DNA from: an uncultured Candidatus Saccharibacteria bacterium
GTDB lineage: Bacteria; Patescibacteriota; Minisyncoccia; Phycocordibacterales; UBA9973
DNA length: 64,000 nt
Assembly (NCBI GenBank): GCA_964596395.1
Contig: CAZQSY010000006.1
Location: forward strand, 153 to 64,152
Direction of reading: 5' to 3'
The notes below the pieces were generated by a model. It made no database searches. It had not been told where the DNA came from and saw only the letters and a list, made by a program, of their open reading frames with translations. Of the stretch, positions 35,007-64,000 are shown piece by piece. Numbering within the stretch: position 1 is the stretch's first letter; each line of letters opens with the position of its first letter. A program made the position numbers and the translations under genes.

Positions 35007-37706
35007 ATGCCACCGCTGCACAAATTCACAACCAAATCAAAAGACGCCATAAAGAAAGCGCATGAACTGGCGATTGAACGGGGACAGAACCATGTTTCTT
35101 CGACGCACCTTCTGGCCGCCTTGCTTTTGCAGGAAGAAAGCATGGTTGGCTCGATATTGGACAAGCTCGAAATAGACACTGTGTTCTTGACCGACTCGGT
35201 GATGGAAAGCATCGAGTCGCCCGAGCGCGCGAGCACCCTTTCTCCTTCGTATCAGATATATTTAAATCCGGACCTGGCGCAGGTGATTGAGCATTCGGTG
35301 AAACTGGCCGAGTACATGAAGGATGATTTTGTTTCGACCGAGCATCTTTTCTTGGCTTTGCTCGAAGTGCCGGGCGAAGCACGGGAAGTCCTTGCCCGTT
35401 TTCGAATACTGAAGGAACCGGTGGTAAAGGTTTTGGAAGAGCTTCGCAGTCAGAACATTACCGACGTCACCGAGCCGAAGAAATTCAAACTACTTCTGAA
35501 ATACACCCGCAATCTGACCAAGCTGGCCAAAGAAGACAAGCTCGACCCTGTTATAGGCCGCGACACCGAAATCATGCGGATTGTGCAGATTCTTTCCCGG
35601 CGCACCAAAAACAACCCGATACTTATCGGCGAAGCGGGTACTGGCAAGACCGCCGTGGTAGAAGGGCTGGCTGAACGGATTGCCAAAGGCAACGTACCCG
35701 AATCCTTGAAAGACAAAGAGCTTGTTTCTCTTGATTTGGGCCTTCTTATAGCCGGTACTAAATACCGCGGAGAATTCGAGGAAAGATTGAAGGGCATCAT
35801 GAAAGAAATAGAACGGGCCGACGGCCGGGTGATTATTTTCATAGACGAGATACACACGATAGTCGGAGCCGGCGGCACCGAAGGCACGATGGATGCCTCG
35901 AACATGTTAAAGCCCGCCCTCTCGCGCGGAGAATTGCGCGCAATCGGCGCGACAACTCTGAAAGAATATCAAAAGCATATTGAAAAAGACCCGGCGCTGG
36001 CCAGGCGTTTTCAGCCTGTGTACATAGACGAGCCGACGCTTGAAGATGCCATCACGATTTTGCGCGGACTCAAAGAGAAGTACGAGCTTTTTCACGGAGT
36101 GCGCATTACCGACGATGCCATAGTCGCGGCGGTGAACCTTTCCACCCGCTATGTTACGAACAGGTTCTTGCCCGACAAGGCAGTTGACCTGATAGACGAG
36201 GCCTCTTCGTCCCTAAAAATCGCGCTTGAAAATAAGCCGCCGGTTTTGGAAGACGCGCATAGAAAGGTTATGCGATTGGAGATAGAAAAGGAAGCGCTTA
36301 AAAAAGAAATCGAAAGCGACACAAAAGAAGAAAAAGAAAAAATCACCAGCACCAAGGCAAGAATCAAGGAGATAGACAAAGAAATTGCCGAGCTGCGCGA
36401 AAAAACGAAAGAATTGGAATTAAAATGGCAGAACGAAAAAGAGACGGTAGCTGAAATTCGTTCAATTAAAAAAGAGCTGGACACTTTGCGCCTGTCTGCC
36501 GAAGACGCCGAAATGCGGGCCGACCTAGCGCGCGCCGCCGAAATACGCTATGGCAAAATTCCGCTTCTTGGCAAAGAGCTCGAGACCAAATCGGCGCGTT
36601 TGAAAAAATTGCAGAAATCAAGGAGGATTCTGAAAGAAGAAGTTACGTCGGAAGATATAGCCGAAGTCGTCGCCCGCTGGACCGGCATCCCGCTCACCAA
36701 GATGCTCGAAGAAGACCGGGCCAAGCTTGCCAGAATGGAAGAAGAATTAAGGAAAAGAGTCGTCGGCCAAGATGACGCCATCGCGCGCGTTTCAGACGCG
36801 ATTCGCCGCTCGCGCGCGGGTATCGGCGACCCGAACCGCCCGGCCGGTTCTTTCATCTTTCTCGGGCCTACCGGTGTGGGAAAGACCGAACTCACCAAGG
36901 CCTTGGCGCAGTTTTTGTTCAACGACGAGAGCGCCCTGATTCGCGTGGATATGTCGGAGTATATGGAGAAACATTCGGTGTCGAAGCTCGTCGGCTCACC
37001 GCCGGGGTACGTGGGTTACGACGAAGCGGGACAGCTCACTGAATCGGTGCGGCACAGGCCTTTCTCAGTGGTGCTTTTCGACGAGATTGAGAAAGCGCAT
37101 CCGGAGGTTTTCAATATACTGCTTCAGGTTATCGACGAAGGCCGGCTTACCGACGGCAAAGGCAGGGTGGTGAATTTCAAAAACACCGTAATTATTTTGA
37201 CGTCGAACATCGGTTCGCAGTTCATAGAAAAGATGCAGACCATCGGCTTTTCAAATAATTCAGACAAAGATAACTACGAGAGCATGAAAGAAAAAGTCAT
37301 GGAGGCGATGAAAGACCACTTCCGGCCTGAGTTCATCAATCGTCTGGATGAAATAATAGTATTCGACATACTTTCCGAAGAATCCATCAAGAAAATCGTC
37401 GGTCTGCGCATGAATACGGTGAAGGAGAGATTGGCCGCCAAAAATATAGACTTGAAAATCTCGGAAGAAGCGCTGTCGTATCTGGCTCAAAAAGGGTATG
37501 ACCCGAATTACGGCGCGCGTCCGCTTAACCGCCTGATTCAGAACAAAATTTTGAATCCCATCGCTTCGCACATAATTTCAAACAACGTGAAAGAGGGGGA
37601 TACTGTCTTCGTGTCAATGAAAAATGATGAACTTTTGATAGAAGTTAAGAAGGGTAAAATCAAAAGCCCGATTCGCCTGCATTCAAGCTCGGGCGCGAAG
37701 GCGTAA
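35007..37706 (+). CDS. clpB: ATP-dependent chaperone ClpB
   Basis: Clp N-domain, two AAA+ modules ([15 protein letters not shown]; [15 protein letters not shown]) separated by a coiled-coil M-domain. Confidence 0.95.
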
Positions 37707-37747
37707 TATGGTGCAAAAAATTTGCTTTTGTGCTAGCTTTTAGGCAA

Positions 37748-37833
37748 GCGCCGATGATAGAGTGGTCAATTATAGCACGCTGTAAACGTGCCGCCTTCGG
37801 GCTACGGGGGTTCGAATCCCTCTCGGCGCACCA
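37748..37833 (+). tRNA. tRNA-Tyr (anticodon GTA), CCA encoded
   Basis: Acceptor GCGCCGA/TCGGCGC, anticodon loop CTGTAAA, long variable arm, terminal ACCA. Confidence 0.85.
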
Positions 37834-37989
37834 AAACAAAACTATTGAGGATTATTTGAAGTTCAAAAATTTTGGGCAAACAAATGCTTAAAAAGATTTT
37901 TCGGGTCTTGATACTGATTTATGGCTTTGCTTTTTTCTGTTAAATAAATTTAGCAAAAGACGTGAAATTCTGCAGTTGTGATATTTTCC

Positions 37990-38018
37990 TTGCAAAAAAG
38001 GTAATTTTTTTGTACAAT
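37990..38018 (+). promoter_or_regulatory. sigma-70-like promoter TTGCAA-17-TACAAT (with TG) upstream of groES
   Basis: Canonical spacing; no inverted CIRCE element visible nearby. Confidence 0.45.
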
Positions 38019-38101
38019 TCCTATTGCCTTAAATGTGCTTTGGCAGAAGCCAGAGTGCTTTTGGGTCTTGTATTACAAGCTTAATTTAATTATTTAGCCA
38101 T

Positions 38102-38458
38102 ATGAAGAAAGAAAAGAAGCTTGCTCGCCGAAGCACTAGCGCAGGCGGGAAAATTTTAAGCAAGATAACTCCGCTCGGAGACAGGGTTTTGGTTTTGCCG
38201 CTTGAACTTTCAGGTGGCGAACACAAAAAAACCGAATCCGGAATTTACGTCCCGGATAGCGAAGCGAAAGAAAAACCCGAACGAGGCACGGTGATAGCCG
38301 TGGGCAAGGGGCATTACGATGACGGCAAGCTCGTGCCAATGTCGGTGAAGGTCGGAGACAAAGTCATGTTTTCGAAATACGGCTACGACGAGGTGAAAGA
38401 AGGCGAGAAGAAATTTTTCATTATAAAAGAAGAAAACATTTTAGCGGTTATAAAATAA
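38102..38458 (+). CDS. groES: co-chaperonin GroES (with short N-terminal basic extension)
   Basis: ITPLGDRVLVLP...GIYVPDSEAKEKPERGTVIAVGKG...GDKVMFSKYG. Confidence 0.85.
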   Translation: MKKEKKLARRSTSAGGKILSKITPLGDRVLVLPLELSGGEHKKTESGIYVPDSEAKEKPERGTVIAVGKGHYDDGKLVPMSVKVGDKVMFSKYGYDEVKEGEKKFFIIKEENILAVIK

Positions 38459-38477
38459 TTTAATTTTTCCGAAAAAT

Positions 38478-40106
38478 ATGTCAAAACAAATTCTATACGA
38501 CCAGGATGCCCGCAAGGCGCTCAAAAAAGGCGTGGATGTCGTGGCAAACGCGGTGAAAATAACGCTCGGCCCGAGAGGAAGAAACGTAATCTTGGAAAAA
38601 AGTTACGGCGCGCCGACTATCACGAACGACGGGGTGACTATTGCGCGGGATATTTCGCTCAAAGACAAGTTTGAGAACATGGGCGCGGAGATTGTGAAAG
38701 AGGTGGCTTCAAAGACGAACGACAGCGCCGGCGACGGCACTACCACTTCGGTCATTCTTACTCAGGCAATCATCGCCGAAGGCCTGAAGCATGTTTCTAT
38801 GGGGGTGAATGCGGTGGCTCTGCGCGTGGGAATTGAAAAAGCGGCGCAAGAAGTAGTAAAGGCGCTTCGCGAAATTTCCAAGGCCATAAAAAACAAAGAC
38901 GAAATAAAACAAGTCGCCACTATTTCGGCTGAATCGGCTGAGATCGGCAAAATTATCGCCGACACGATTGAAAAAGTCGGCAAAGACGGGGTGGTGACAG
39001 TAGAAGAATCCCAATCCTTCGGAGTTGATTCAGAAGTGGTTGAAGGGCTTGAGTTTGACAAGGGCTACGTGTCTCCATACATGATTACCAATCCGGAAAG
39101 AATGGAGGCCGAAATGAAAGACCCTTACATATTGGTGACTGACAAGAAAATTTCTTCAGTGAAAGAGATTTTGCCGGTAATGGAAAAAATGGCGCAGGCA
39201 GGAAAGAAAGAACTGGTAATTATCGCCGAAGATGTAGATGGTGAAGCGTTGGCGACATTTATTTTGAACAAATTGCGCGGGGCTTTCAGTGTGCTGGCAG
39301 TCAAGGCGCCCGGTTTCGGAGACGACAAAAAGAGCCAGCTTGAGGATATCGCTGTGGTTGTCGGCGGGAAGCCGGTGATTTCCGACCTTAACATGAAGCT
39401 TGAAGACACGACGCTTGCTATGCTGGGGCGAGCGAACAAGGTTTTATCGGCCAAAGACAGCACCGTGATTGTGGGTGGCAAGGGTAAAAAAGTCGACATT
39501 GAAAAAAGAATCTCTGAGCTGAGGGTGCAAAAAGAAAATTTTGATTCAAAATACGACAAAGAGAAATACGAAAAGAGAATCGCCAAACTTTCGGGTGGCG
39601 TGGCGATTATACGAGTAGGCGCGGCTACCGAGACCGAGATGAAGTATCTGAAATTAAAGATTGAAGACGCGGTAAATGCGACCAAGGCGGCCATCGAGGA
39701 AGGTATTGTGGTGGGCGGCGGCAGCGCCTTAGTGAAAGTTTACAAAAAACTTTCCGGCAAGAAAGGTACCTCGGGCGAGACGATGGAATCCGCTTTGGGT
39801 TCGGAGATAATTCTGAAAGCGCTGCTTTCTCCACTTAAACAAATCGCGGTGAATGCCGGCAAGGAAGACGGTTCGGTAATCGTGGACAAAGTGATGAATT
39901 CTCTGAAGGAAAACGCCGGTTACGACGCGCTGGCCGACAAATTCGTGGATGACATGCTGAAAGCGGGAATTATAGACCCGGTGAAAGTGACCCGCACGGC
40001 GGTAGAGAACGCTTCTTCTGCGGCGGCCATCCTTCTTACCACCGAAGTGGCGATTACCGACGAGCCGGAAAAAGAAAAACCGGTTCCCCCGGCGCCGGAA
40101 TACTAA
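38478..40106 (+). CDS. groEL: chaperonin GroEL
   Basis: [43 protein letters not shown], and further conserved apical and equatorial motifs along the full-length protein. Confidence 0.97.
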
Positions 40107-42842: not shown

Positions 42843-43871
42843 ATGTCTACACTTTCCTTTAAACCAAAACAAGTAACTAAGAGAATAACTTCCCACCTGC
42901 AGGACCGCATGCGGGATATCATTCTCAACCGTTTCGGCTTGACGGCTGACGTACGCAAAAAAACGCTGGACGAAATCGGCAAAAAATACAGCATCACCCG
43001 CGAGCGCGTTCGCCAGATAGAGGATGTCGCGATTAAAATGATAAAAAAGTCGGCTGTTTATCATGAAGAGCAGAAAATTTTTGAAGAACTGAAAGAGCTA
43101 GTTCATTCCCTGGGAGGGATTGTTGCCGAACACGACCTGCTTTCGCACGTTTCCAAAGATAAAAACACTCAAAATCACATCCGTTTTTATCTGGAACTTG
43201 GGGACTATTTCAGAAAACATCATGAAGATGAACATTTCAAAGCCCGCTGGAGTGTAGATGACGAGTTAGCCGAGAGGGTGCACAGTTCGCTGAAAAAATT
43301 GTACGAAGGACTTAAAGACGAGGAGCTTTTGCATGAGACCGAGATGATAAAAAGATTTTTGGAGCACATGAAAGACGTGGCTGAAAAGTATCAGAACGAT
43401 GAAATTGTAAAAAGGTGGCTGGCGCTCACTAAAACCATTTCCCGAAATCCGCTCGGCGAATGGGGCAAATCAACTTCGCCGAATGTTCGCACCCGCGGTG
43501 TCAAGGACTTTGCATACTTGGTTATGCGAAAGCACGGCAGCCCGATGCATTTCAAAGAAGTGGCCGACGCGATTTCAAGAACCTTCGGCAGAAAGACGCA
43601 TTATGCCACTTGCCACAACGAGCTGATTAAAGACCCGCGCTTCGTGCTGGTGGGGCGGGGGCTCTACGCGCTTTCCGAGTGGGGTTATAAGACAGGCATC
43701 GCCAGAGACGTGATACGCGATATTTTAAAAAGGGAAGGCCCGCTTTCCAAGGAACAAGTGGTAGAAAAAGTGATGAAAGAGAGATACTTCAAGAAGAACA
43801 CTATACTGGTAAATTTAGTGAATTCAAAGTATTTCAAGAAGCTGAAAAACGGCTTGTATTCCGCGGTCTAA
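42843..43871 (+). CDS. protein with N-terminal sigma-70 region-4-like HTH and long C-terminal extension
   Basis: LDEIGKKYSITRERVRQIEDVAIKMIKK matches the sigma70 r4.2 signature; no regions 2 or 3 visible. Confidence 0.45.
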   Translation: MSTLSFKPKQVTKRITSHLQDRMRDIILNRFGLTADVRKKTLDEIGKKYSITRERVRQIEDVAIKMIKKSAVYHEEQKIFEELKELVHSLGGIVAEHDLLSHVSKDKNTQNHIRFYLELGDYFRKHHEDEHFKARWSVDDELAERVHSSLKKLYEGLKDEELLHETEMIKRFLEHMKDVAEKYQNDEIVKRWLALTKTISRNPLGEWGKSTSPNVRTRGVKDFAYLVMRKHGSPMHFKEVADAISRTFGRKTHYATCHNELIKDPRFVLVGRGLYALSEWGYKTGIARDVIRDILKREGPLSKEQVVEKVMKERYFKKNTILVNLVNSKYFKKLKNGLYSAV

Positions 43872-43915: not shown

Positions 43916-45316
43916 GTGCGGCATTTTCTTGAAGAGATAAAAAACTTTTGGCCGATTATTTTGTTTGTTATCTTGGCCTATTTCATAACTGCCGAAGCCG
44001 GAGCGGTGGCTTTTCGCGTTGACCTGACTGCTTTGTGGGTATACAAGGTGGCGCTGGCTCTTCTGCCGTTTCTGGCAACGGCTCTTCTGGCTTATGCCGC
44101 TTACAAAATGTGGCTTCATTATGTGCAGGCCGACTTTATTTCGGGCATTGACTGGGTATTGTTAGAGATTGTGCCACCGCGCGATGTGGTGCGCTCGCCG
44201 AAGGCCATGGAGCTTTTTATCACGAACGCCTTATATCACTGGAGCGAAAAAGGCGGGCTTGAAACCTACTGGCAGGGAGCGGTGTGGTTTTGGTTTTCGC
44301 TCGAAATTGCCTCAATCGACGGGCAGGTGCATTTTTATATTCGTACGCCGACCCGCGTGAAGGGTTTGATAGAGACCCAGATGTACGCGCAGTATCCCCA
44401 AGCGCAGGTAAAGGTGGTCGAGGACTATACTTTGGCGGTTGATAAAATCACTGCCGACAGCCCTTGGAATTTGTGGGGCTGCGAATTCAAACTCAAGAGA
44501 CCGGATGTCTTTCCCATTATGACTTATGTTGACTTCGGGCTGGATAAAGACCCGAAGGAAGAATACAAAGTTGACCCGATAACGCCGGTCGTAGAGCTTT
44601 TCGGCTCACTTCAGAAGGGAGAACAAATGTGGATGCAAATAGTGGTAAGGCCGTCTAAAAAAGAATACAAGGTGCCTGGCAAATGGTTTAAGAAGCACGA
44701 CTGGCTTACGCAAGGCGAGATTGATTTGAAAAAATACATGCAGGAGTTCACCAGATTGAACAAATCTGAAGACCCCGCGCATCCGACTGCCAAAGAAATT
44801 CGTCTGCCGGATTATTTGCAGGAAAATGTGAAGAGAGCTGGCGCTAAAATGAACAAGGTCGGTTTCGACGCGGGTATCCGTGTGTGCTATGTGGCCAAGA
44901 GAGAGCTTTTTAACATGAACAATCGCCGTAATTTGCGCTTGATTTTCCGCCAGTATGCCGCGCCTTACCGTAATGAGCTTTGGCGCTTCAACGCTACCCA
45001 GGCCGATGCTTTTGCGTCGGGCCTGTTCAGCGGTTTCTTCTTGGCTTCTAAGAAATCAATAATTCGCCTTTGCGACAGAATGCTCGAAGAATATCGCGAG
45101 CGGGAATTTTACCATCCGCCCATGCGCCACAAATTACACCTTCCTTGGCCGATATCGCCTTACATTTTTCCGAACTATTTTCACCACCACATAAATATTC
45201 TGAATACCGAAGAACTTGCCACTTTATGGCACTTCCCGGGCCAGATACTGCGTGTCCCGGCGCTCGAGCGTATAGAATCAAAAGAGGCGTCGCCCCCTAC
45301 GAACTTGCCCACGTAA
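43916..45316 (+). CDS. hypothetical membrane protein (2 N-terminal TM helices + ~400-aa soluble domain)
   Basis: Long ORF, hydrophobic N-terminus, His/Pro-rich C-terminus; no recognised motif. Confidence 0.5.
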   Translation: MRHFLEEIKNFWPIILFVILAYFITAEAGAVAFRVDLTALWVYKVALALLPFLATALLAYAAYKMWLHYVQADFISGIDWVLLEIVPPRDVVRSPKAMELFITNALYHWSEKGGLETYWQGAVWFWFSLEIASIDGQVHFYIRTPTRVKGLIETQMYAQYPQAQVKVVEDYTLAVDKITADSPWNLWGCEFKLKRPDVFPIMTYVDFGLDKDPKEEYKVDPITPVVELFGSLQKGEQMWMQIVVRPSKKEYKVPGKWFKKHDWLTQGEIDLKKYMQEFTRLNKSEDPAHPTAKEIRLPDYLQENVKRAGAKMNKVGFDAGIRVCYVAKRELFNMNNRRNLRLIFRQYAAPYRNELWRFNATQADAFASGLFSGFFLASKKSIIRLCDRMLEEYREREFYHPPMRHKLHLPWPISPYIFPNYFHHHINILNTEELATLWHFPGQILRVPALERIESKEASPPTNLPT

Positions 45317-57528: not shown

Positions 57529-58125
57529 ATGTCAGATGAAAAAGAAGAATCAAAAAAAGAAGAAAAGACCCCCGAGGAATCGGAGGTTCTTGAGTTTGAA
57601 TTTAACGAAGACGGGGAGGAAGATTTAAAAAAGACAATCAAGAAACTCCGCGCCGAACTAAAAACCGCCAAGGCAGAACGAGACGAATACCTTACCGGCT
57701 GGCAGAAAGAGCGGGCCGATTTTGCCAATTACAAAAGAGAGGAGGAGAACCGCAAGGCAAGTTTTTCCGAATCGGTTCGGGAGCGCATTTTGACGAAATT
57801 TTTGGCGGTGCTGGATAGTTTCAGCATGGCTTTCGCCAACAAAGACGCTTGGGAGAAAGTTGACGAGGGCTGGCGCAAGGGGGTTGAATATATCCATTCA
57901 CAGTTTCAGAATGTTTTTGAAGAATACGGAGTAAAAGAAATCGGGGAAATTGGAGAAAGTTTCGACGCCAACATTCACCATTCGGTAGGCGGTACCCCGA
58001 CCGAAGAAAAAGAGAAAGACCACAAGGTCGCCCTGGTCGTCCAAAAAGGATACAAGCTGGGCGAACGCGTGCTGCGCCCGGCCAAGGTGAACGTCTACGA
58101 ATATGTCGAAAACGGAGGAGAATAG
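57529..58125 (+). CDS. grpE: nucleotide exchange factor GrpE
   Basis: Coiled-coil N-terminus, GWQKERADFANYKRE (GrpE signature-like), C-terminal beta-domain. Confidence 0.85.
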   Translation: MSDEKEESKKEEKTPEESEVLEFEFNEDGEEDLKKTIKKLRAELKTAKAERDEYLTGWQKERADFANYKREEENRKASFSESVRERILTKFLAVLDSFSMAFANKDAWEKVDEGWRKGVEYIHSQFQNVFEEYGVKEIGEIGESFDANIHHSVGGTPTEEKEKDHKVALVVQKGYKLGERVLRPAKVNVYEYVENGGE

Positions 58126-58248
58126 AATTTGCGAGCGGTGCTATCAGCAAGAAGTGTATTAATTTTCTAGAAAGTGGTACAATTAAGTTAAACCCCGTCG
58201 TTCGCGAACGACGGGGTAAAGGTCGAGCATTAGTAAATATCACTCTAT

Positions 58249-58557
58249 ATGGTATTTATTCATACGACTTGCGCTACCTCCGAAGAAGCAGAACGCCTGG
58301 GCAAAATGATTTTGGATAAAAAGCTCGGCGCCTGCGTTGAATATTGGCCGGTTACATCTATATATCGCTGGAAAGGGGAATTAAAGAACACGCAGGAAGT
58401 CATGATGACTATTACCACGTTCGAGCCGCGCCTAGAAGACGTGAACAATCTGATTTCACAAGAACACAGCTATTCTACCCCGATGATTGCCGGCATAGAC
58501 GTGCGCCGCATTAACCGCGCCTACAAAGAGTGGATGATGGAAGAGGTAGTTCAATAA
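58249..58557 (+). CDS. cutA: CutA1-like divalent-cation tolerance protein
   Basis: ~100 aa with C(V)EYWPVTSIYRWKGEL...TTFEPRLEDV..YSTPMIAGIDV pattern typical of CutA1 trimers. Confidence 0.6.
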   Translation: MVFIHTTCATSEEAERLGKMILDKKLGACVEYWPVTSIYRWKGELKNTQEVMMTITTFEPRLEDVNNLISQEHSYSTPMIAGIDVRRINRAYKEWMMEEVVQ

Positions 58558-58572
58558 AATTTGTGCCCGTGA

Positions 58573-59091
58573 CTATCCGTTTGCGCTTTTCAAAAAAGCG
58601 TGCCTGGTCTTTTCATCTATTTTATTTGAGACGATTATCATGAGTTCAGAGAGAAGCCCCATGTCTTTTTTAATATTTTCAAAAAGAAATTCGTACGGAT
58701 ATGGGGAAATCCAGACGGTATTTTTTACGCACCGGAAGCCGGCTTTTTTCAGTAGGTAGCGTAGCGCCTCGCGTTCGTTTTTTCTTTCTTCAGGCATGTC
58801 TAAAATAACGATTCGCCAAAAACCGTCCCAGGCGGGGGATACCAGAGCGCCTTCGCCTTCGAGTTTTATGCGGTCCAACTTTTCTTTGCCGGCCTTGGTA
58901 AGACGCAGGTAGCTTTTGTTGTCTGATTTTATTATTTCCACGCACCCTGCGGTGGCCAGGTTTTTTATCGAACGGTTTATGGCATATCTGGTTTTTTTGT
59001 CTGTCTTTTCCGCGATGGATTCTATCGAGACAACCCTTTTTTCAGCCAATTTTTTCAATATTTTACCGGAATATTCTTTTCTGCTTGACAT
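58573..59091 (-). CDS. PaaX-family-like transcriptional regulator (wHTH plus C-terminal PaaX-type domain), divergent from dnaK
   Basis: C-terminal WDGFWRIVILDMPEERKNEREALRYLLKKAGFRCVKNTVWISP fits the PaaX pattern W.G.W..V.YDIPE..R..R..LR..L...GF..LQ.SVW..P. Confidence 0.5.
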   Translation of the reverse strand: MSSRKEYSGKILKKLAEKRVVSIESIAEKTDKKTRYAINRSIKNLATAGCVEIIKSDNKSYLRLTKAGKEKLDRIKLEGEGALVSPAWDGFWRIVILDMPEERKNEREALRYLLKKAGFRCVKNTVWISPYPYEFLFENIKKDMGLLSELMIIVSNKIDEKTRHAFLKSANG

Positions 59092-59183
59092 GTGGATATA
59101 CTATCATATATACTCTTATTATACAAATATTTCGTGGTCGCAAAATTATTGTTATCAACATATTATAAAATAAAAATCAAAAT

Positions 59184-61109
59184 ATGTCAAAAATAATAGG
59201 TATTGATTTAGGAACAACCAACTCGGCCTTTGCCGTTATAGAAGGCGGTGAACCGAAAATTTTAGAAAATGCGGAAGGTATGCGCACCACGCCTTCAATC
59301 GTGGCCATGGCCAAGAATGGAGACCGTCTGGCTGGAGTTTTAGCCAAAAGGCAGTCTGTCACTAATCCGAAAAACACCATTTTTCAAATCAAGAGATTCA
59401 TGGGGCACACTTTCGACGAGCCGGGCGTGCAGAAAGATATTAAAGCTGTCTCTTTTGACATTCGTAAATCTGAAAACGGTGGAGTCGAGGTGAAGATGAG
59501 CGACAAATGGTACCGGCCGGAAGAAATTTCCGCGATGATTCTGCAAAAAATTAAAGCCGACGCCGAGGCCCGGCTCGGAGAAAAAGTAACCGAAGCGGTA
59601 ATCACTGTGCCGGCTTACTTCAACGATTCGCAAAGAAAAGCCACCAAAGACGCCGGGGCGATTGCCGGTCTTGATGTGAAGCGCATCATCAATGAGCCGA
59701 CAGCTGCCGCCTTGGCTTACGGATTTAACAAAAAGAAAAACGAAAAAATTGCCGTGTTTGATTTCGGCGGCGGAACTTTTGACATTTCGGTACTCGAAGT
59801 CGGTGAAGACGTGGTAGAAGTGAAAGCCGTCGATGGAGACGCGCATCTGGGCGGCAAAGACATCGACCAGAAAATAATAAACTGGCTGGCGGAAGGATTC
59901 CAGAAAGAACACGGGATTGATTTGAGGAAAGATACTCTGGCCCGACAGCGCCTAGACGATGCCGCCGAAAAAGCGAAAATCGAGCTTTCCACCGCAGTTG
60001 AGTCAGAAATTAATCTGCCTTTCATTACGTCTTCAGACGCCGGGCCCCTGCACTTGGTACGTACCATGAAAAGAGCTGACCTAGAAGATATTTGCCGAGA
60101 ATTTGTGGATAGAGCGATGCAGATTACCAAGCGAGCAGTAGAAGCATCTCCATTTAAATTATCCGACATAAATGAAGTTGTCTTGGTCGGCGGTCAGACC
60201 CGCATGCCGATGATTCAGGCGGAGGTTGAAAAATTTTTCGGCAAGAAACCGCACATGGGTGTGAACCCCGACGAAGTTGTAGCTCTCGGCGCCGCGGTGC
60301 AGGCCGGAGTTTTGCAAGGCGACGTTAAAGATGTTTTACTTCTCGACGTTACGCCCCTGTCTTTGGGCATTGAGACCTTGGGCGGAGTCGCTACAAAGTT
60401 AATTGAAAGAAACACGACTATTCCGGCTTCGAAGTCGCAGGTTTTTTCTACTGCCGCCGACAATCAGACCTCGGTAGAAATTCACATCGTGCAGGGCGAG
60501 CGCCCGATGGCTTCTGACAACAAATCGCTAGGCCGGTTTATTTTGGATGGCATTCCGCCGGCGCCTAGGGGCATGCCGCAGGTTGAGGTTACTTTTGATA
60601 TCGATGTAAATGGAATTCTCCACGTGAAAGCTGCGGATAAGGCCTCTGGTAAAGCTCAATCAATCAAGATTGAAGCGAGCTCTGGCTTAAAAGATGAAGA
60701 CATCAAGAAGATGCAGCAGGACGCCGAAGCGCATGCGGAAGAAGATAAGAAGAAAAAAGAAAACGCCGACGCGCGGAACACGGCCGAAATGATTATTTAT
60801 ACGGCGGAGAAAGCGCTTAAAGACAATGAAGCGAAAATTCCGGCAGACGTGAAAGACGGCGTGAATAAAAAAATCGCCGTTTTAAAAGAAGTGAAAGACG
60901 GCGCGGACGCGGAAAAAATCAAAAAAGCCACAGAAGAACTTTCTTCCGAGATGTCTAAAATTGGCGAGGCGATTTCAAAATCTGCCGGAGCCGGACAGTC
61001 TGGTTCTAACCCGAGCTCGGAACAGCCCGGTAGTAACAATCAAGACGGCAATGTCCGCGACGCTGACTTCAAGGAAGGCGATAAAGACCAAGAGCCGCCG
61101 AAACAGTAA
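59184..61109 (+). CDS. dnaK: molecular chaperone DnaK (Hsp70)
   Basis: [28 protein letters not shown], substrate-binding domain and Gly-rich C-terminus. Confidence 0.97.
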
Positions 61110-61131
61110 AGTTAAACCGAAATAAAAACTA

Positions 61132-61169
61132 GCGCAAAAAGCCCCAAATAATGTCGGGGCTTTTTGCGC
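61132..61169. terminator. 14-bp palindromic intrinsic terminator after dnaK
   Basis: GCGCAAAAAGCCCC-aaataatgtc-GGGGCTTTTTGCGC. Confidence 0.65.
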
Positions 61170-61195
61170 TATCCTTTGTATGTCATAATAATATC

Positions 61196-62887
61196 ATGCA
61201 GGCAGAAACCCGTATTTGTCAAAATTGTAGGCAAAACTTCACCATTGATTCCGACGATTTCGGCTTTTACGAAAAAATCCACGTCCCTCCGCCGACGTTT
61301 TGCCCGGAGTGCCGTAGACAAAGAAGATTGGCCTGGCGGAACGATTTTAATTTTTATAATCGTAACTGCGACTTATGTAAAAGAAATATTATCTCAGTCT
61401 ATTCTCCCGATAATCCCCAGGTAATCTATTGCAACAAATGCTGGTGGAGCGATAAATGGGACCCGAAAGCTTACACCATGGATTTTGATTTTTCAAGACC
61501 CTTTTTTGAGCAGTTTGCCGAGTTCCGGATGAAGGTTCCCGCCCTGGCGCTTTTCAACGATAATAATATTGGCAGCGAAAACTGCGAGTACACCCAAGAT
61601 TTTGCTTTCGGAAAAAATTGCTATATGTGCATGGTGGCTTGGAAGATACAGGATTGTATGTATTTCTGTTACGGAGCAGATGGAAAAGAGTTAGTTGATT
61701 CGATGGGTATATTCGATACGAGTCAAGGGCTTTATGAGGCGATGTATTCTGGCAAATGTTTCGGCTCTAGAAACATACATTATTCTTCTGCTTTGATAAA
61801 CTGTGCTTTCTGTTATGATTGCGACGGCTGCGAATACTGTTTTATGTGCGTGAATTTGAAAGGGAAAAAATATTGTGTTTTAAACAAGCAGTATAGCAGG
61901 GAAGAATATGAGAAGATTTTACAATCATATCAACTAAACACTTGGAGTGGAGTTCAAGAAGCAGAAAAGGAATTTTGGAGATTTGTGCTTACACAACCTA
62001 GGAAATTTGTGTTTTTCAGGAATTGTAAAAATTGCACGGGTAACAATTTAGTGAATAGCAAGAATGCGAAAAATGTTTTCCATGGACGAAGGTCAGAGGA
62101 TTCAAAATATTTGGAAAATGGCGATACTCAAAAAACCAGTTATGATTTGTCGGTCGGTGGAGAGCTCACGGAATGTTATGAAGGGCTTACCCCAGACCAT
62201 TCAAACAGAGCTTTATTTGTTATTTACACATGGAGGTGCGTCGATGTAGCTTACTCAGAATCTTGCCAATCTTCCCAGAATTGTTTCGGATGTATTGGGC
62301 TTAAACATGGAGAATATTCTATTTTCAATAAACAATATCCTAAGGAAGAATATCTAGAACTCAAGGAGAAAATTATAGAGCACATGAAAAAAACGGGAGA
62401 GTGGGGAGAATTTTTCCCAATGAAATTCTCGCCTTTTGCATACAACGAATCCATGGCGAATTTATCTTTCCCGATGACAGAAGAAGAGGTGATAAATTTT
62501 GGCTTGCGTTGGCAGGATAATTTACAACGAACGAGGGGAAGGACAACGTTAGAAAGTATCCCAGACAGTATTGATAATGTACCAGAAAATATTACGGACG
62601 AAATTTTAGAATGTAAAAAATGCGAAAGAAATTACAAGATAACACCAAACGAATTTTCTTTTTATAAAAAGTGGCGGATTCCCGTCCCTAGGCATTGTTT
62701 CTTTTGTCGTTTAGAAAAACGTTTTTCACTTCGAACGCCTTCTCGCCTTTGGTACCGTTCCTGCATGTGTGAAAAAGGAAATCACGGGCATGCTGGAAAA
62801 TGTCCGAATGAATTCGAAACCAGTTATGCTCCTGATCGGCCGGAAATAGTTTACTGCGAACGGTGTTACCAGCAGGAGGTTTACTGA
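61196..62887 (+). CDS. very cysteine-rich protein (~50 Cys in 563 aa) with duplicated terminal zinc-ribbon-like modules; function unknown
   Basis: N-terminal CQNCRQNFTIDSDDFGFYEKIHVPPPTFCPECRRQRRLAWRN and C-terminal CKKCERNYKITPNEFSFYKKWRIPVPRHCFFCRLEKRFSLR are paralogous; internal CYDCDGCEYCFMC and CQSSQNCFGC clusters; start trimmed to MQAETRIC. Confidence 0.6.
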   Translation: MQAETRICQNCRQNFTIDSDDFGFYEKIHVPPPTFCPECRRQRRLAWRNDFNFYNRNCDLCKRNIISVYSPDNPQVIYCNKCWWSDKWDPKAYTMDFDFSRPFFEQFAEFRMKVPALALFNDNNIGSENCEYTQDFAFGKNCYMCMVAWKIQDCMYFCYGADGKELVDSMGIFDTSQGLYEAMYSGKCFGSRNIHYSSALINCAFCYDCDGCEYCFMCVNLKGKKYCVLNKQYSREEYEKILQSYQLNTWSGVQEAEKEFWRFVLTQPRKFVFFRNCKNCTGNNLVNSKNAKNVFHGRRSEDSKYLENGDTQKTSYDLSVGGELTECYEGLTPDHSNRALFVIYTWRCVDVAYSESCQSSQNCFGCIGLKHGEYSIFNKQYPKEEYLELKEKIIEHMKKTGEWGEFFPMKFSPFAYNESMANLSFPMTEEEVINFGLRWQDNLQRTRGRTTLESIPDSIDNVPENITDEILECKKCERNYKITPNEFSFYKKWRIPVPRHCFFCRLEKRFSLRTPSRLWYRSCMCEKGNHGHAGKCPNEFETSYAPDRPEIVYCERCYQQEVY

Positions 62888-62911
62888 TAAAATATGCTAT
62901 AATTTTACGGT

Positions 62912-64000
62912 ATGGAGCTCCACGAACTGCCCAAGAACAAGGAAATAACTTACCTGGGTCTTACTACCTATAGAGACAAAAACACGCTTTTTGGAATCAA
63001 GCGCAAAGACCGGCGCCAGCATGTGTACATTCTCGGAAAATCCGGCACCGGTAAGTCGGCTCTCATGTTTAATATGATTATCCAGAACATCGAGAACGGC
63101 GATGGCGTGTGTCTTGTCGACCCGCACGGCGAAAATGTGGAAGCAGTGCTCTCGGCCATTCCGCCACACCGCATGAAGGATGTAGTTTATTTCAACCCGG
63201 CCGATACCGATTACCATATTGGTTTTAACGTGCTTGAGCTGATTGATCCGAAATACAAGCATCTAGTGGCCTCGGGTCTCATGGGAATTTTCACCAAGAT
63301 TTGGGCGAATGCCTGGAGCGCCCGCATGGAATATATTTTAAACAACGCGATTCTGGCCCTCTTGGATACTCCAGGTTCGACCTTGCTTGGTATTATGCGC
63401 ATGCTGGTGGATAAAGATTACCGCCAGAAAATAATCACCAACCTGAAAGACCCGGTGATAAAGGCATTTTGGATTCACGAGTACGAGGCCTGGCAGGATA
63501 AATTCAGGAATGAAGCTATTGCCCCGATTCAGAACAAAGTCGGGCAGTTTCTCTCTACATCTATCATCAGGAATATTGTCGGCCAATCCAAGAGCACGAT
63601 TAACATTTTTGACATCATGAACCAGGGGAAAATTTTCTTGGTGAACGTGTCAAAGGGGCGCATCGGAGAAGACAATTCGTCGCTGTTGGGAGGAATTATC
63701 ATTACCAAGATTCAGCTCGCAGCCATGGAAAGGGTGCGCATACCCGAAGAAAGCAGGAAAGATTTCTATCTGTATGTCGACGAGTTTCAGAATTTCGTAA
63801 CGCAGGCCTTTGCCGGCATTTTGTCGGAAGCCAGGAAGTACCGCTTGAATCTGACCGTCGCCCATCAATACACCGCCCAGCTTATTTCTGAAAAAAATAC
63901 CAGCGTGAAAGACGCGATTTTCGGCAACGTCGGCACGATGATAGTTTTCCGCGTCGGCGCGGACGACGCGAAGTTTTTGGAAAAAGAATTTGAGCCGGAA
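62912..64000 (+). CDS. soluble VirD4/TrwB-like type IV coupling-protein ATPase (3' end beyond window)
   Basis: Not in the ORF track (no stop in window); HVYILGKSGTGKSALMFNMIIQNIENGDGVCLVDPHGE parallels TrwB HLLVVGATGTGKSVLLRELAYTGLLRGDRMVIVDPNGD; C-terminal YVDEFQNF matches the TraG/TraD DEFqn motif; no N-terminal TM helices. Confidence 0.7.
   Translation, partial: MELHELPKNKEITYLGLTTYRDKNTLFGIKRKDRRQHVYILGKSGTGKSALMFNMIIQNIENGDGVCLVDPHGENVEAVLSAIPPHRMKDVVYFNPADTDYHIGFNVLELIDPKYKHLVASGLMGIFTKIWANAWSARMEYILNNAILALLDTPGSTLLGIMRMLVDKDYRQKIITNLKDPVIKAFWIHEYEAWQDKFRNEAIAPIQNKVGQFLSTSIIRNIVGQSKSTINIFDIMNQGKIFLVNVSKGRIGEDNSSLLGGIIITKIQLAAMERVRIPEESRKDFYLYVDEFQNFVTQAFAGILSEARKYRLNLTVAHQYTAQLISEKNTSVKDAIFGNVGTMIVFRVGADDAKFLEKEFEPE

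Follow-up and report, generated by a model that had tools for sequence, protein, structure and literature searches.

The window analysed here is a 64,000-nucleotide (nt) stretch from an uncultured Candidatus Saccharibacteria bacterium (GenBank assembly GCA_964596395.1, contig CAZQSY010000006.1, positions 153 to 64,152 of the forward strand). Near its 3′ end lies a gene for a cysteine-rich protein, at 61196-62887, followed on the same strand by a gene for a predicted soluble VirD4-like ATPase. We use CYS as a label for the cysteine-rich family to which the first of these genes belongs. An earlier note on this DNA, made from the sequence alone, had singled the gene out for its cysteines, its duplicated zinc-ribbon ends and its position beside the ATPase. 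The CYS gene, the predicted parts of its product and its immediate neighbours are as follows, in window coordinates and with protein lengths in amino acids (aa).

61130-61171, no strand assigned: terminator-like hairpin with an 18-bp stem, between dnaK and the CYS gene, with an alternative ATG (61151) in its loop
61196-62887, forward strand: CYS gene, 563 aa with 37 Cys, stop codon at 62885-62887, from the open reading frame (ORF) and its translation
61217-61312, forward strand: predicted zinc finger 1, residues 8-39, C8xxC11-x24-C36xxC39, with FGFYEK...P.P..CPECRRQRR and a conserved Arg patch
61367-61441, forward strand: predicted zinc finger 2, residues 58-82, C58xxC61-x17-C79xxC82, invariant in alignment A1
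61550-61891, forward strand: putative solenoid 1, residues 119-232, a Cys-laddered stretch of about 9 coils, 12-13 residues each, that closes with the C203...C218 CxxC run and NKQY
61892-61999, forward strand: predicted helical hairpin 1, residues 233-268, paralogue-specific, with AlphaFold2 helices at 235-245 and 250-264
62000-62335, forward strand: putative solenoid 2, residues 269-380, a degenerate copy of solenoid 1 with a period 3/12 signal, ending in FGC.GLK...NKQY
62336-62590, forward strand: predicted helix and the most conserved interior block, residues 381-465, GE(F/W)GEFFP...S.F(G/A)YNE..A...FP
62612-62707, forward strand: predicted zinc finger 3, residues 473-504, C473xxC476-x24-C501xxC504, a paralogue of finger 1
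62762-62866, forward strand: predicted zinc finger 4, residues 523-557, C523...C536-x17-C554xxC557, with a variable C/H-containing insert
62912-64000, forward strand: TrwB/TraD/VirD4-like P-loop ATPase, predicted soluble, first 363 aa before the window ends, Walker A at about residue 42, no transmembrane segment

The ORF containing the CYS gene spans 61151-62887 on the forward strand, and the ATG at 61196 yields the 563-aa product already given in the earlier note, whose count of about 50 cysteines falls to 37 (6.6%); the family median is likewise 37 (5-95% range 31-43). The true start is likelier at 61196 than at 61151, because the ATG at 61151 sits in the hairpin loop and homologues start with M-x(2-6)-C-x2-C; read from the ATG inside the hairpin, the ORF would be wrongly lengthened to 578 aa. 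The hairpin has T-runs on either side, in the manner of a bidirectional terminator. Unlike the dnaK/CYS interval, the interval between the CYS gene and the ATPase gene contains no hairpin in the window. The ATPase gene starts 24 nt 3′ of the CYS stop codon, and this spacer (62888-62911) holds an extended –10 consensus, TGCTATAAT, whose end lies 9 nt ahead of the ATPase ATG, while a CATAAT ends 7 nt upstream of the CYS ATG. As consensus matches only, the two would suit leaderless or near-leaderless transcripts.

Architecture of the CYS protein

The two ends of the CYS protein align with each other by BLASTP (27% identity over 95 aa, E=1e-15) across both a CxxC...F[GS]FY[EK]K...P.P..CxxCR finger and a ...YCxxC finger. 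The paralogy of the ends suggested by the earlier note thus stands, and its module size of about 45 aa gives way to about 95 aa with two fingers each. The 16 terminal cysteines form four CxxC...CxxC pairs of fixed spacing, in which most ligands are 91-99% conserved across the family: 94-99% in finger 1 and 98-99% in finger 4, where the family form is C-x(4-12)-C-x17-CxxC. The x24 spacing is found in 212 of 260 family members and the x17 spacing in 191 of 260. Some columns of fingers 2 and 3 reach only 60-83% in the wider alignment, yet the same columns are invariant in A1, and for this reason the lower values probably reflect alignment shifts. The CYS protein likely carries four Cys4 sites that are predicted to bind zinc; the idea of multiple zinc sites, also raised earlier, is backed by the fixed-spacing pairs, by their conservation and by weak treble-clef profile matches. 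Conserved arginines cluster after the second knuckle in both finger 1 and finger 3 (R40, R43, R44, R48, R505, R509 and R521), and the end modules are basic, with a pI of 8.5-8.8.

An AlphaFold2 model of the whole protein, built from a 46-sequence alignment, is compact and confident (predicted local distance difference test 85.6, predicted template-modelling score 0.83), with its elements in the order double finger, helix, beta-rich 119-232, helical hairpin, beta-rich 269-380, helix, conserved block, double finger. Within the interior, one half aligns to the other (38% over 47 aa, E=2e-9). Modelled strands at 180, 192, 204 and 216 define a 12-residue register with rows of the form 'GK[ND]C.Y......', and the autocorrelation of the profile peaks at each multiple of 3 (3, 6, 9, 12, 24), with maxima at 12 and 24. 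From the modelled secondary structure and the periodicity, rather than from coordinates, we infer that the interior is a duplicated beta-solenoid with 12 residues per coil and a cysteine ladder. The strong period-3 similarity atop the 12-residue repeat in residues 119-380 (61550-62335) is unusual for beta-solenoids.

Two interior features picked out by the earlier note are present, namely the cluster C203-x2-C206-x2-C209-x2-C212-x2-C215-x2-C218 and the repeated NKQY..EEY motif, which occurs as NKQY(S/P)(R/K)EEY at 229-238 and 378-387. Most interior cysteines are variable (1-60% conserved, often replaced by Ser, Leu or Tyr), the exceptions being C215 and C366 (92-93%), C212 (87%) and C142, C209, C218 and C357 (74-76%). 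Interior conservation is highest at 361-440, which includes FGC.GLK..., NKQY.KEEY and GEFFP...S.FGYNE..A...FP; the block at 381-465 scores 0.60-0.69 family-wide, and its residues S412, Y416, N417, E418 and A421 are invariant in A1. The conservation of helical hairpin 1 is 0.69 inside the orthogroup versus 0.38 family-wide.

The earlier note had not recognised the family, and our searches agree: the CYS protein matches no Pfam or NCBIfam model at threshold, and a sequence search of the Protein Data Bank (PDB) gave no significant match. The nearest Pfam model, zf_Tbcl (PF13451), scores 14.8 bits against the window protein (E=0.029), under its gathering threshold of 24 bits, and matches 18 of 46 homologues at E<0.1 (best 1.5e-4); zf_Tbcl_2 (PF23477) weakly matches 7 of the 46 (best E=9e-4), and the window protein is without an NCBIfam match. 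Fingers 1 and 3 share with zf_Tbcl a pair of CxxC knuckles that are separated by about 24 residues and enclose an aromatic/Pro motif and, in likeness to zf_Tbcl/zf_Tbcl_2 (TIGR04272, 'CxxC-x17-CxxC domain'), have the layout CxxC...F.F...FY.K...P..CxxCR. Fingers 2 and 4 share the exact CxxC-x17-CxxC spacing of zf_Tbcl_2/TIGR04272, with ...Y.P....VYCxxC. The families of this finger type are known domains of unknown function; those domains are small and stand alone or at a terminus, whereas four such fingers in CYS flank a 370-aa domain that lies outside all models.

The best PDB profile matches are LIM-like (CRIP, CRP1) and insignificant (E=0.57-3.8); CYS resembles these LIM double fingers in having two successive knuckle pairs and ...YCxxCY, and differs in ligand pattern and spacing. 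Foldseek found nothing in the PDB at E<=1e-3 (best E=2.7e-3, template-modelling score 0.09-0.11), and its weak matches are all left-handed beta-helix enzymes: LpxD, GlmU and gamma-carbonic-anhydrase. From the left-handed (hexapeptide) beta-helix CYS differs in its period, which is 3/12 rather than 6/18, and in having no Hexapep Pfam match. The antifreeze protein of Tenebrio is a 12-residue Cys-ladder solenoid and shares with CYS the 12-residue register and the cysteines at fixed positions; the Tenebrio-type beta-helix is secreted and disulfide-bonded, whereas CYS is predicted to be cytosolic and is flanked by zinc fingers. Among viral models the sole good local superpositions, at finger 1, are with phage 'putative zinc-ribbon' proteins of about 44 aa (0.7-0.8 Å over 43-44 aa). 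A defence or phage origin was considered and rejected: the CYS protein has no PADLOC or PHROG match, and two peptide patterns found no relatives on IMG/VR contigs.

A hydrophobic 19-mer (mean Kyte-Doolittle >=1.6) occurs in 0 of 223 family members, which leaves them without a candidate signal peptide or transmembrane segment. Across 260 members the first Cys ligand comes 7 residues in from the N-terminus (median), and the tail past the last CxxC is 6 aa over the 5th-95th percentile, as it is in the window protein after C557. With no hydrophobic segment and with ligands near both termini, the CYS protein is therefore expected to be cytosolic and to lack a free C-terminal tail.

A large Patescibacteria family in tandem arrays

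A word-index search returned at least 6,900 homologues among 8,000 scored candidates, all annotated as 'hypothetical' and none with a Pfam domain; those that carry an organism name belong to Paceibacterota or Patescibacteria. In an exhaustive search the family came to at least 4,705 clusters at 50% identity, of which 2,041 are at E<=1e-30; essentially all are from Patescibacteria. Lengths are uniform, at about 545-600 aa. Two peptide patterns alone locate more than 575 loci in the GTDB species representatives. The best 80 of these make up our CYS-seeded set, in which 34 loci have full 8-kb flanks (full-flank loci). The 80 loci are labelled Nomurabacteria, Paceibacterota, Minisyncoccia, Uhr-, Staskawicz-, Harrison-, Lipton- and Sungbacteria, and Peregrinibacteria/Peribacterales; two are labelled otherwise (Ignavibacteria, Bdellovibrionales), possibly from mis-binning.

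Family genes come in arrays. The 80 loci hold 223 of them, with a median of 3 and a maximum of 10 in full-flank loci, and all 105 adjacent CYS pairs (105/105) share a strand and are separated by a median of about 40 nt. For 94% of members the best identity between genomes exceeds the best within the genome (medians 58% versus 43%); by this sequence comparison the paralogues are ancient and conserved. Their divergence is concentrated at 119-178, 233-350 and 441-465, the fingers and 351-440 being common to all, and orthologues are about as conserved as DnaK. The gene in the window is single copy, with no CYS paralogue elsewhere in the 64 kb. Horizontal transfer was rejected for it, since GC near the gene (0.44-0.45) does not stand out from the rest of the window (0.39-0.52). 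An intein or insertion was rejected too, since the tblastn spans of 2.0-2.5 kb for a 1.7-kb gene are overlapping matches to adjacent tandem paralogues.

Linkage to VirD4-like ATPases and to the Hsp70 operon

ATPase genes are present in 26 of the 80 CYS-seeded loci and in 18 of the 34 with full flanks, against a rough genome-size expectation of about 5% (binomial p=4e-15, which ignores kinship between loci). The 19 CYS-to-ATPase and 19 ATPase-to-CYS junctions are co-oriented without exception (38/38), with median gaps of 43 and 27 nt and several gaps of 0-8 nt, and 34 ATPase genes have a CYS gene at most 400 nt away. These junctions involve long, short and c1-fused ATPases and carry the labels Nomurabacteria, Staskawiczbacteria, Minisyncoccia and Peribacterales. 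Linkage in relatives, which the earlier note had proposed as a check, thus holds across three ATPase subtypes, and the family did not turn out to be a housekeeping zinc-ribbon protein unlinked to the ATPase, the outcome that the note had named as speaking against its suggestion. We conclude that the CYS-ATPase link is real and lineage-restricted, and that it is not obligatory for the ATPase.

The ATPase passes the Pfam cut-offs for TrwB_AAD_bind (41.2 bits, cut-off 20.5), T4SS-DNA_transf (33.9, cut-off 20.1), TraG-D_C (27.6, cut-off 22) and DUF87 (35.6). Against NCBIfam equivalogs of type IV coupling proteins (T4CPs) it scores 10-20 times under every curated cut-off (SXT_TraD 43.7 against 366, CD1115 40.6 against 250, TraD_Ftype 23.1 against 521). 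A hydrophobic 19-mer is missing in 34 of 36 ATPase ORFs of the CYS-seeded loci, the two exceptions being N-terminal extensions introduced by ORF calling. The earlier note rightly saw a TrwB/VirD4-like ATPase here; its designation as a 'T4 coupling ATPase' goes too far for a protein without an N-terminal membrane segment. The ATPase also matches the PADLOC model mad8 (E=7.5e-16).

Three ATPase subtypes can be told apart: long with a finger (about 700 aa, the window type), short (about 490 aa) and c1-fused, with about 47% identity between subtypes versus about 90% between orthologues. In orthologues of the window ATPase (90-93% identity) a C-terminal CxxC-x17-CxxC finger precedes a K/E-rich tail. 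This finger matches TIGR04272 at 54.8 bits (cut-off 36) and PF23477 at E=1e-13, and hhalign aligns its profile with CYS finger 2 at 82% probability (E=1e-5). In long ATPases (for example L028:442-2571) a Lys/Glu/Pro-rich low-complexity tail of 150-250 aa extends past the finger, and the short paralogue has neither finger nor tail.

The wider context of the ATPase was read from a second set of 80 metagenome loci seeded with the ATPase (L081-L160). The usual Patescibacteria order there is SecDF, c2, c1, ATPase, pgk and a recJ-like gene, where c2 is a Sigma70_r4 plus HARE-HTH protein and c1 is a protein of about 450 aa with two N-terminal hydrophobic helices and no Pfam match. The c1 gene directly precedes the ATPase gene in 39 loci, and the two are fused in L008, L032, L051 and phrog_5156. 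Over all 160 loci the conserved neighbours are c1, c2, pgk, the recJ-like gene, the Hsp70 genes and the CYS genes. A further cluster, c9 (L101:6768-7283 and 8 other loci), often stands between c1 and the ATPase; it encodes about 170 aa with an N-terminal hydrophobic segment and an R-N-E-L-A-H motif (Rx4H, HEPN-like), without a Pfam match.

In a 2025 survey, 5,713 T4CP homologues were counted in 2,918 Patescibacteria genomes, just 148 of them near virB4, and were described as possibly 'exapted for other functions' (PMC12102498). With c1 as its usual neighbour or fusion partner, the ATPase gives the impression of being the soluble part of a VirD4-like system, split and lineage-wide, rather than a component of a conjugative type IV secretion system (T4SS), in agreement with the published count of 148 in 5,713. 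It resembles VirD4, TraD and TrwB in passing the TrwB/TraG Pfam models and in being directly adjoined, on the same strand, by arrays of paralogues, and differs from them in having no transmembrane anchor and, as its usual neighbour, the separate two-helix membrane protein c1. The 18 annotated of the window's roughly 20 largest ORFs (>=250 aa in 1-41 kb, >=120 aa in 41-50 kb) include no T4SS gene or relaxase, and the ATPase is not demonstrably a T4SS component. The relaxosome-like role raised in the earlier note, like a classical T4SS role, consequently finds no support here, with a soluble ATPase, scores under the T4CP cut-offs and no T4SS gene in the annotated ORFs.

The second recurrent partner of CYS genes is the Hsp70 operon. 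The window features that bear on it and on c1 and c2 are these.

42843-43871: c2, upstream of c1
43916-45316, forward strand: c1 homologue, 466 aa, hydrophobic segments at 8-35 and 35-63 (tblastn 33% identity, E=4.6e-56)
57529-58125, forward strand: grpE; in relatives a CYS paralogue starts -32 to +29 nt from its end
58573-59091, reverse strand: PaaX_M (Cas2-like) domain protein, 172 aa, divergent, just upstream of dnaK
59184-61109, forward strand: dnaK, immediately upstream of the CYS gene; orthologues 73-77% identical lie in the same neighbourhoods

The typical order in the lineage is grpE, one to three CYS genes, a paaX-like gene on the opposite strand, dnaK, long ATPase, CYS, short ATPase and dnaJ, and the window has a reduced version of it: grpE, cutA, paaX-like (reverse strand), dnaK, hairpin, CYS, long ATPase. 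An Hsp70-system gene is present in 13 of the 34 full-flank CYS loci. GrpE-to-CYS junctions occur in 11 loci (-32 to +29 nt by our own ORF calls), ATPase-to-DnaJ junctions in 10 (1-100 nt) and DnaK-to-ATPase junctions in 5. A grpE-dnaK-dnaJ operon split open by CYS genes and two ATPase paralogues was seen in L084, L088, L023, L025-L027, L040, L041 and L072 and in the window (57529-64000); the short ATPase gene is followed by dnaJ and then by a small membrane protein gene, c18. The arrangement of the PaaX_M gene and dnaK is kept in at least 13 related loci, and the PaaX_M protein could be a heat-shock regulator in the place of HrcA.

In the window the c2-c1 pair is intact 17 kb upstream and followed by yceG, the ATPase gene having moved to a place after dnaK and the CYS gene. 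ClpB and GroEL are encoded at 35007-40106, about 20 kb upstream of the grpE/dnaK block, so that the 64-kb stretch is unusually rich in chaperone genes. The annotated window ORFs are otherwise housekeeping: SecA, Mur ligases, GyrA, IF-2, ClpB, GroEL, BipA, MnmA, AlaRS and ribosomal proteins.

Possible roles of the CYS protein

Of the readings considered, the best supported, if far from assured, is that CYS is a cytoplasmic, zinc-stabilised scaffold acting as a partner or adaptor of the VirD4-like ATPase. Two double-finger modules would cap a duplicated, Cys-laddered beta-solenoid, with several zinc ions stabilising the scaffold, and the protein would work with the adjacent soluble TraD/VirD4-like ATPase, a presumed hexamer, as its adaptor or the subunit that gives it specificity. 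A docking or nucleic-acid-binding function common to the family would fall to the conserved finger modules and the 361-440 core, one CYS finger type apparently being the same as that in the C-terminal tail of the ATPase, and the paralogue-specific solenoid and helix surfaces may select different substrates. Coupling proteins elsewhere have accessory partners or substrates, such as TraM for TraD and the products of the virD4-bep arrays of Bartonella; CYS resembles neither TraM nor Bep/BID domains nor relaxosome proteins.

Several points weigh against a partnership. Only 12 of the 80 ATPase-seeded loci hold CYS genes, and in 10 of these 12, all but L103 and L110, the ATPase is at least 70% identical to that of the window. 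ATPases with 57-68% identity to the window's occur in the order c2-c1-ATPase-pgk-recJ without CYS genes; the ATPase therefore needs no adjacent CYS gene. About half of the full-flank CYS loci (16/34) have no ATPase within 8 kb. The sampled loci share ancestry, and inherited synteny inflates the junction counts; the similarity between the CYS and ATPase fingers (hhalign probability 82%) is modest; and the equally tight grpE and dnaJ junctions allow a chaperone-related reading.

The first and third of these points also favour an independent zinc-finger function, whether nucleic-acid-binding, regulatory or lineage-specific housekeeping, for which the ATPase and Hsp70 neighbourhood would be an accident kept in one order-level lineage. 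The same is suggested by the conserved arginines after fingers 1 and 3 and the basic end modules, by orthologue conservation at about the level of DnaK, and by CYS arrays that also adjoin three recurrent clusters read from sequence starts, without a Pfam check, as FtsW/RodA-, MraY- and MurG-like. An accident of this kind is harder to reconcile with adjacency to three diverged ATPase subtypes in both gene orders, often with gaps of 0-8 nt, and with a finger type common to CYS and the ATPase. We regard an independent function as doubtful, if still a serious contender.

The CYS paralogues might instead be cargo, exported by the VirD4-like ATPase with c1 or a T4SS as the membrane part, possibly into host cells, and kept export-competent by Hsp70. 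Effector arrays beside virD4 in Bartonella and type VII substrates beside EccC offer analogues, and cysteine ladders, which CYS appears to share, are typical of secreted solenoid proteins. Tandem paralogue arrays flanking a T4CP-like ATPase, and CYS genes interleaved with grpE, dnaK and dnaJ, would fit such a route. Patescibacteria are episymbionts, and in Southlakia the T4SS genes are essential; the Southlakia T4CP homologue is, however, non-essential (PMC12102498), and the ATPase described here is soluble, of a kind rarely found near virB4. With 6 residues past the last zinc ligand, the protein moreover has no free C-terminal tail for a T4SS signal, its paralogues are ancient and strongly constrained rather than fast-evolving, and four predicted zinc fingers suggest a stable cytosolic fold. 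Taken together, these make export distinctly unlikely.

A role in proteostasis, as a zinc- or thiol-based holdase, co-chaperone or redox sensor of the DnaJ zinc-finger or Hsp33 kind co-regulated with Hsp70, is improbable. The tight GrpE-to-CYS, ATPase-to-DnaJ and DnaK-to-ATPase junctions and the 13 full-flank loci with an Hsp70-system gene speak for it, as does the window gene itself, which follows dnaK in the usual place of dnaJ and resembles dnaJ in encoding a Cys-rich protein of predicted zinc-finger character. The protein nevertheless has no J domain, HPD motif, CxxCxGxG repeat or DnaJ Pfam match, nor any Hsp33 signature, and a separate, true dnaJ is present in related loci; the simpler idea that CYS replaces DnaJ was rejected on these grounds. 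In the window a terminator-like hairpin divides dnaK from the CYS gene, and the Hsp70 association is limited to related loci, whereas the CYS-ATPase link reaches further (L051, L036). Very improbable, finally, is the idea, present in the earlier note as Fe-S centres, that the interior CxxC run binds an iron-sulfur cluster or another redox metal or stores metal: C209, C212, C215 and C218 are 74-92% conserved, in CxxCxxCxxC spacing and in a region modelled with high confidence, but most interior cysteines vary, the duplicated half has no equivalent cysteines, the CxxCxxCxxxCP and CxxxCxxC motifs of ferredoxin and radical-SAM proteins are missing, and no Fe-S family is among the Pfam and NCBIfam matches.

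Literature searches found no account of the CYS family or its finger domains, and a metatranscriptome paper on Paceibacteria does not mention the family. What appears to be undescribed is the family at full length, together with its central domain, its tandem arrays and its ties to orphan ATPases and the Hsp70 operon. Patescibacteria account for a large part of the diversity of bacteria, and unannotated genes carry much of what these organisms do; the CYS family, with at least 4,705 clusters at 50% identity, is a case for which we found no model, name or paper. An array of up to 10 genes takes up about 17 kb, roughly 2% of a genome of under about 1 Mb, the size assumed for these bacteria. The fixed finger spacings and the GEFFP...S.FGYNE block provide a signature for building a family model.

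With CYS genes set among grpE, dnaK and dnaJ, one of the most conserved operons of bacteria has been remodelled in an unusual way, and the CYS-ATPase junctions point to a first candidate partner for the orphan VirD4-like ATPases of these bacteria. A bolder reading, on the whole unlikely, is that the CYS arrays and the duplicated soluble VirD4-like ATPases in the grpE-dnaK-dnaJ operon form an unrecognised, Patescibacteria-specific machine, in which CYS proteins would be adaptors or cargoes handled by a hexameric translocase together with Hsp70 and the solenoid would represent a new cytosolic fold class. If true, such a machine would account for thousands of 'orphan' coupling-protein homologues in episymbionts.

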